Below are positions 1 through 339 of a stretch of DNA of 339 nucleotides, piece by piece. The DNA is from Escherichia coli. Its GTDB lineage: Bacteria > Pseudomonadota > Gammaproteobacteria > Enterobacterales > Enterobacteriaceae. The position numbers and the translations under genes are program-made. Under the pieces are notes generated by a model, which was not told the DNA's origin, did not search any database, and saw nothing but the letters and a program-made list of their open reading frames with translations. Position 1 is the first letter of the stretch. The number at the start of each line of letters is the position of its first letter. The DNA lies in the NCBI RefSeq assembly GCF_003334335.1, contig NZ_QOWQ01000214.1, one strand, 5' to 3'.

Positions 1-339
1 GAATGCGGGTATCCTTCTTGTTCCATGTGGCCGTGGCGATTCGGGATTTACTGCGGGGGCCGAGGGGGCGTTTAACGAAGCGTCGGGAGCGACCGCAGGC
101 TCGTCCCTGTGGGGGGCGGATAAACCGCTGTATCATGACCTGGTCAGCAGAACCCGTGCGGCCCTGAAGAAAAATCCGAAGAACGTGCTGTTATCAGTGA
201 TCTGGATGCAGGGAGAAAAAGATGTCAGTTCGGGGAGACATGCAGAACACAATGCGCTTTTCCTTGCCATGGTAAATCAGTTCCGTACGGAACTGGCAGA
301 TGTGGCAGAGCAGTGTACTGGCGGGACAACGGCCAGCGT
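1..339 (+). CDS. Internal fragment (partial at both ends) of a putative SASA-domain / SGNH-superfamily carbohydrate esterase, sialate 9-O-acetylesterase-like (NanS or prophage NanS-p type). Codons are in phase with position 2 (first full codon 2-4, last full codon 335-337).
   Basis: Seen in sequence: + frame 2 is open for all 112 codons, whereas + frame 1 stops at 73-75 (taa), + frame 3 stops at 165-167 (tga), and each reverse frame has at least two stops (reverse complements of tta/tca at 48, 72, 133, 144, 191, 194, 225, 277). Translation: NAGILLVPCGRGDSGFTAGAEGAFNEASGATAGSSLWGADKPLYHDLVSRTRAALKKNPKNVLLSVIWMQGEKDVSSGRHAEHNALFLAMVNQFRTELADVAEQCTGGTTAS. Established knowledge (recalled, not searched): SASA/CE6-type SGNH esterases have a QGE block III preceded by Trp and hydrophobic residues, matching VLLSVIWMQGEKD at 185-223, and a hydrophobic Gly-containing block II, matching ILLVPCGRGDSGF at 11-49. 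Codon usage is enterobacterial-like. The family assignment is inference from motifs only. Confidence 0.7.

Follow-up and report, generated by a model that had tools for sequence, protein, structure and literature searches.

Analysis of the 339-nt window, by which we mean the whole stretch of DNA under study, indicates with a probability of roughly 0.85 that the G-rich tract at positions 50–121 encodes an ordinary ordered loop following the oxyanion-hole motif of a prophage NanS-p, and that its G runs are incidental codon choices. An ORF scan revealed that frame +2 is open across the whole window, which is the coding sequence (positions 2–337, + strand) for residues 178–289 of a 659-aa prophage NanS-p, a SASA family carbohydrate esterase (WP_062890964.1), as identified by the open frame, DNA identity, Pfam, the structure 3PT5 and phrog_143. 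The tract had been described as coding, and frame +2 is indeed open throughout it, the translation being TAGAEGAFNEASGATAGSSLWGAD; the frame and the residues had been read correctly, except that 23 residues were given, with the final D missing, where there are 24. Three short ORFs of 34–54 aa that overlap the NanS-p frame were also noticed, at positions 3–167 on the + strand (frame 3) and at positions 133–270 and 225–329 on the − strand. Nothing suggests that they are genes, and the conserved frame +2 protein fully explains the reading.

The DNA of the window was 100% identical to part of a CDS annotated as "SASA family carbohydrate esterase" in a lambdoid prophage of E. coli 2018-166, and phage PhiR5_1 also showed 100% DNA identity to it. 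In strain 2018-166, the gene (nucleotides 7471–9450 of a 16339-nt locus) has the antiterminator gene Q and a tRNA-Ile/Arg/Arg cluster upstream, and DUF1378, DUF826, holin and lysozyme genes downstream. The established site of nanS-p is between Q and the lysis genes (PMC10462455), and the same late-region lambdoid placement, by which a NanS-p is recognised, with Q on the 5′ side and lysis genes on the 3′ side, was found here. Homologues were present in 343 phage records, mostly of Stx-converting phages, at about 68% DNA identity and annotated as NanS or yjhS. It was also noticed that, in the prophage of strain 2018-166, stx genes are absent from the interval from Q to nanS-p, the position of stx in Stx phages being occupied by a 141-nt pseudogene fragment only.

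Searches with the full protein revealed 1) Pfam matches to DUF1737 (residues 3–50), SASA (residues 81–276, E = 3.9e-9) and DUF6645 (residues 508–616), 2) PDB sequence matches to E. coli NanS/YjhS (3PT5, residues 74–394, E = 3e-114) and to the NanS-p C-terminal domain (6YP6, residues 445–653, E = 4e-48), and 3) a full-length match to phrog_143 in PHROGs, and a search of NCBIfam gave no family match. The window fragment alone matched Pfam SASA (PF03629) with E = 1.6e-9. The Pfam SASA and 3PT5 matches bear out the preliminary description, in which the protein had been taken for an SGNH esterase of the NanS/SASA type. By these sequence matches, the protein is a three-domain prophage NanS-p, i.e. 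a putative sialate 9-O-acetylesterase consisting of DUF1737, an SGNH/SASA esterase and a lectin-like C-terminal domain. An AlphaFold2 model, for which an alignment of 30 sequences (A1) was the input, had the SGNH alpha/beta fold (mean pLDDT 94.8, pTM 0.93), and the best Foldseek matches were 3PT5, 1ZMB and 2APJ. The protein belongs to the NanS-p family, a known one, its architecture, context, fold and motifs all being those of the family except for the strict Gly at the OxyII position.

Comparison with E. coli NanS (3PT5) gave TM-scores of 0.91/0.96, an rmsd of 1.5 Å and a Foldseek identity of 54%, and the two proteins have in common the GQSN of block I, the MQGE of SASA block III and the His of block V. 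NanS is chromosomally encoded and has a single domain, whereas the present protein has DUF1737 and the lectin-like C-terminal domain in addition; block II is RGGSAF in NanS and RGDSGF here, so that an Asp stands at the OxyII position. The loop of NanS is of the same length, 24 residues, and has the same W-G end, but 12 of the 24 residues differ, mostly being changed to Ala, Gly or Ser in the present protein (e.g. Y to F, R to A, H to S and R to L). The NanS-p proteins of Stx phages (933W L0105; phi24B vb_24B_21/gp84; C-terminal domain 6YP6) have the same three-domain architecture, Q/lysis placement, loop length and residue numbering, whereas their identity to the present protein is only about 70% in the esterase domain and about 68% for the DNA of the window. 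The canonical SASA/CE6 esterases At4g34215 (2APJ) and CAC0529 (1ZMB) share the SGNH fold, the GQSN of block I, the GG[ST] of block II, a Trp after block II and the QGE of block III, at an overall identity of 15–17%.

In NanS, the blocks are GQSNA (block I, residues 17–21), RGGSAF (block II, 120–125), MQGEFD (block III, 178–183) and SHFS (block V, 303) (PMC10792757), the catalytic residues are Ser19 and His301, with Gln18 as a contributor to the oxyanion hole (PMC9063846; PMC9487903). The GQSN of block I provides the nucleophilic Ser and, next to it, the Gln of an inverted oxyanion hole (PMC9487903). Two of the corresponding blocks of the present protein lie outside the window: block I, GQSNS at residues 85–89, with G, Q, S and N nearly invariant in A1, and block V, in which His373 of THFSS aligned to His301 of NanS SHFS and was invariant in A1. 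Inside the window and on its + strand, a core beta-strand predicted by DSSP on the model (AGILLVPCG, residues 179–187, positions 5–31) leads into SGNH block II, RGDSGF (residues 188–193, positions 32–49), the oxyanion-hole block, which aligned to RGGSAF 120–125 of NanS (PMC10792757) and in which G189 was conserved in 82 and F193 in 78 of 88 sequences. The flagged segment (residues 194–217, positions 50–121) is the ordered loop from block II to the helix beginning at P219, an alpha-helix predicted by DSSP for residues 219–233 (PLYHDLVSRTRAALK, positions 125–169) with a near-invariant R227 (86/88). A further predicted core beta-strand (residues 239–246, positions 185–208) leads into the SASA-type block III, MQGEKD (residues 246–251, positions 206–223), aligned to MQGEFD 178–183 of NanS; this block is of the (H/M)QGE type, with G248, E249 and D251 invariant and Q247 nearly so in A1. 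The position of the segment between blocks II and III, as proposed earlier, is thus upheld by the alignment to NanS, which places these blocks at residues 188–193 and 246–251. Since the segment starts one residue past the oxyanion-hole block, its N-terminal end must adjoin the active-site zone.

The model gave pLDDT values of 97–98 for the segment (10-residue blocks), and DSSP predicted a small beta-hairpin, F201-N202/G206-A207 with the turn at E203-S205 (positions 71–91, + strand), together with isolated bridges at G192 and L213. Alignment of the homologues revealed a conserved motif, G-x-[YF]-[DN], corresponding to G199, A200, F201 and N202 (positions 65–76, + strand), in which the anchors G199, [YF]201 and [DN]202 were conserved in 63/83, 80/84 and 64/84 sequences, respectively; G196 and G215 were conserved too. 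The segment ends near W214-G215 (positions 110–115, + strand), where W was found in 84 of 88 sequences and aligned to the W of 2APJ and 1ZMB, i.e. the Trp common to the canonical SASA enzymes (GGTxIxxW). Residues 204–213, the C-terminal half of the loop, were variable across the NanS-like clade, and their poor conservation in the alignment fits a surface excursion that would have little direct catalytic role. Position 209 is among nine variable SASA positions of Stx2a-phage NanS-p (PMC10462455). Compared with the PhiR12_1 allele (89% DNA identity), the segment had nine synonymous changes and one nonsynonymous change (dN/dS 0.03), the corresponding dN/dS being 0.14 for the esterase domain and 0.19 for the whole gene; as judged from these substitution ratios, the segment is under strong purifying selection.

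These properties leave very little room for the view that the segment joins the two conserved blocks as a low-complexity linker, flexible and intrinsically disordered, a reading to which its composition lends some appeal: 62% of the 24 residues are Gly, Ala or Ser, and the entropy of the segment ranked 8th lowest of the 636 24-mer windows in the protein. Against it are the pLDDT of 97–98 with the hairpin bridges, the invariant length among NanS-p alleles, the conserved anchors G199, [YF]201, [DN]202 and W214, and the dN/dS of 0.03. In addition, the minimum 12-residue entropy was 2.36 bits, with no 12-mer below the SEG trigger of 2.2 bits, so that the segment would not trigger the SEG default, and the NanS counterpart, TAGSEGTYSERHGASHDACRWGTD, is of ordinary composition. 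The compositional bias of the segment is real but mild. Of the earlier claim of a low-complexity Gly/Ala/Ser segment, the biased composition therefore stands and the low complexity in the sense of SEG does not; the flexible loop that had been envisaged is contradicted by the pLDDT, the hairpin, the anchors and the dN/dS, and the fallback wording, ordinary loop sequence, was essentially right, as the loop is ordered and conserved in length as in 3PT5. In the ordered loop that we prefer, the Gly/Ala/Ser bias would reflect small residues at turns and at variable, presumably exposed positions.

The three G runs are located as had been stated, GGGGG at positions 55–59, GGGGG at 64–68 and GGGGGG at 111–116, all on the + strand, whereas the GC content of the tract, given before as about 65%, is actually 72.2%, compared with 56.6% for the window and 54.4% for the whole gene. 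A null was obtained by keeping the protein fixed and drawing synonymous codons from the gene's own usage. Under this null the expected GC of the tract was 65.7 ± 3.3% (P ~0.04 for a GC as high as that of the tract), and at least three runs of G≥5 were seen in 0.7% of the synonymous draws, a test that is post hoc because the tract was selected for its runs. The richness in GC is mostly due to the Gly (GGN) and Ala (GCN) codons, and the excess of G runs is due to three GGG Gly codons, each of which stands after a codon ending in G and before a GCN Ala codon, namely GCG-GGG-GCC, GAG-GGG-GCG and TGG-GGG-GCG in the first, second and third runs, respectively.

The rarity of so many runs in the null would be the argument for a DNA- or RNA-level element laid over the coding sequence, for example a G-quadruplex, a tract for phase variation by strand slippage or a structured RNA. 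However, a DNA alignment of five alleles revealed that runs 1 and 2 are without counterpart in the 89%-identical and 933W-type alleles, being interrupted by synonymous or neighbouring changes, and that run 3 is kept as G6 in PhiR12_1 and as G4 in the other alleles. This third run is largely forced by the Trp-Gly codons, as TGG-GGN for W214-G215 brings at least G4 with it, and nucleotides T110–G114 were invariant in the same alignment. No canonical G4 motif was found on either strand, and a search of Rfam gave zero matches. Contingency tracts are typically longer than G runs of 5–6, and the four other copies examined (PhiR5_1, S19-651, PhiR12_1 and a Min27 CDS fragment) are in frame across the tract, without a frameshift at the runs. 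With the G runs not conserved even at 89% identity between alleles, there is no indication of a DNA-level element, and we regard one as highly improbable. The three runs would rather be by-products of the choice of GGG and GCG codons in the present allele, with no function of their own.

To place the length of the loop within the family, the phmmer alignment to 3PT5 may be taken first; it was gapless through the segment (TAGAEGAFNEASGATAGSSLWGAD against TAGSEGTYSERHGASHDACRWGTD), so that residues 126–149 of NanS are the counterpart of residues 194–217. The segment was of the same length, with zero indels, in all 120 of the 120 close NanS-p clusters (E. coli and E. albertii), the consensus of which was T.G..G.[FY][ST]..[ST]GA[ST]..S..WG. 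A wider set was drawn from 376 matches at E≤1e-3 among 1.8 billion representatives, with identities down to about 26%, and comprised 88 sequences. In 84 of these, F193 and W214 were spaced by 19–34 residues, with a mode of 20–22 (20 in the present protein), and in the remaining four by only 4–5 residues. As the loop is absent from these 4 of 88 homologues, the fold can do without it. The short form of the link was also found in 2APJ (IGLVPCASGGTAIKEW, GGTAIKEW) and 1ZMB (IGLIPCAEGGSSIDEW, GGSSIDEW), in which the Trp is located 6 residues after GG, whereas it is located 24 residues after GG in NanS and NanS-p (in NanS, RGGSAF+18+RW). Relative to 2APJ, 1ZMB and the four short-loop homologues, there are about 16–18 extra residues. 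In terms of these alignments, the loop is an insertion of about 18 residues belonging to the whole NanS-like subfamily, already visible in the solved 3PT5 and not specific to one lineage.

It follows that the lineage-specific insertion considered in the preliminary description holds at the subfamily level only, relative to 2APJ and 1ZMB, and fails relative to NanS and to the 120 NanS-p clusters; the alignment to NanS, which had been proposed there as the check, revealed a conserved length, and this counts against an insertion at the NanS/NanS-p level. That the segment is an insertion of the present NanS-p lineage, relative to NanS and other NanS-p alleles, has a negligible probability. The compositional impression alone speaks for it, along with the rarity of the allele, which was found at ≥99% identity in 31 of 5,426 complete E. 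coli genomes; the gapless alignment to 3PT5 and the lack of indels in the 120 close clusters speak against it, as does the fact that the rare allele differs through substitutions only. The flagged tract is already known, then, the solved structure of NanS having a loop of equal length, and it adds nothing new. In distant NanS-like homologues (P0154, P0155, P0167, P0127 and P0132, some of 700–1,600 aa), more insertions were observed in the loop or after the Trp, for example RVYVDGSRGG inside the loop and GGLAGNGG past the Trp. On the alignments of these proteins, the loop site appears to be one that tolerates repeated elaboration.

As for the origin of the loop in the NanS clade, we considered that the motif running from block II to the Trp, GG[ST]xxxxW, had been duplicated in tandem. 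Such a duplication would account for the observation that a GTSFGAGDWGT stretch of a short-loop homologue (P0249) was aligned by phmmer to NanS twice, at 133–146 and 149–162, for the re-entry of the Pfam SASA model into the window fragment at residue 207, and for a self-match in the present allele (P ~0.013, shift 14). However, the self-match in NanS was not significant (P ~0.18) and had a different shift (16), and a profile-profile comparison of the loop halves (hhalign, 84 sequences) gave a score of 3.9, within the 2.8–7.7 of column-shuffled controls. With the self-alignment inconsistent between the allele and NanS, and the half-versus-half score no better than controls, an origin by tandem duplication is unsupported and improbable.

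The substitution at the oxyanion block deserves separate mention. The OxyII residue stands third in block II, as exemplified by Gly44 of TAP, in which block II is ISGDTS (PMC10792757). The alignment of block II revealed that the present allele has a GAT codon (positions 38–40, + strand) for Asp190 at this SGNH "G" position, which contributes its backbone NH and is occupied by Gly122 in NanS. In the NanS-like clade the OxyII column was variable (G65 S7 D4 A4 E3 N2 M2 L1), and only the backbone NH is used at OxyII. Asp190 is kept in the 89%-identical allele, for which the dN/dS of the esterase domain was given above; that allele was carried by five more of the complete E. coli genomes. No assayed enzyme of the present allele lineage was found, and the reference strains EDL933 and Sakai, both well studied, are absent from the carrier genomes.

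Block II is part of the nucleophile-oxyanion zone in the SGNH topology (PMC10792757). In the ordered loop proposed here, the chain would leave the core sheet right after block II RGDSGF, make the short beta-hairpin F201-N202/G206-A207, and come back at the family-conserved Trp214 ahead of the next helix. To judge by the isolated bridges at G192 and L213, both ends of the loop would return to block II. Since the loop starts one residue past the oxyanion block and both of its ends return there, the hairpin is probably located at the rim of the substrate cleft; as judged from fold topology alone, it probably forms part of that rim. By the same topology, it is possible that the hairpin helps the NanS-like subfamily to recognise the sialic-acid moiety.

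A bolder reading, which we consider unlikely, is that the hairpin of about 18 residues is the element by which a generic acetylesterase of the SASA type is adapted to 9-O-acetyl sialic acids, and that the substrate range or activity of the rare allele is perhaps altered. The features of the allele behind this reading are the Asp at the SGNH "G", the change of Tyr201 to Phe and the changes of polar loop residues to Ala, Gly or Ser, under purifying selection; were it true, the rare allele might differ in substrate range or activity from the characterised NanS-p enzymes. Through NanS-p enzymes, E. coli strains, enterohaemorrhagic ones among them, are able to use the O-acetylated sialic acids of mucin, and allelic differences near the active site could, in principle, change the host glycans that are usable. 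For the ordinary loop that we prefer, two points are modestly useful: the NanS-like subfamily is marked out by this loop, which exceeds the link in the canonical SASA enzymes by about 18 residues, and in the rare allele an Asp takes the place of the classical oxyanion Gly.

In a 2026 preprint, the DUF1737 domain of gp84, the NanS-p of phi24B, is reported to attach in hexameric form to the central hexons of the T=9 capsid, and gp84 to be proteolytically processed, with release of the esterase and lectin domains (bioRxiv 10.64898/2026.04.10.717836). If this preprint is right, NanS-p is a virion decoration protein besides being a fitness factor of the lysogen. Foldseek also revealed that the esterase model resembles SGNH/SASA-like domains in the phage tail structures 9VYH and 9LC0 (TM ~0.4–0.5), the structures with such domains being the tailspike of cyanopodophage Pan3 and the tail complex of phage N4. 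This likeness of the model suggests that acetylesterase domains borne on virions recur across phages.

A frameshift as the cause of the alternative "DUF6645" annotation was ruled out, the CDS concerned being a full-length gene of 662 aa. In Stx phage 2851 (NC_049943.1), a TGA stands where the window has TGT (Cys) at positions 314–316, and the annotation of this phage gives nanS-p as a truncated "DUF1737 domain-containing protein" of 280 aa, with a hypothetical CDS as a separate entry after it; the gene of phage 2851 looks like a nonsense-mutated NanS-p.
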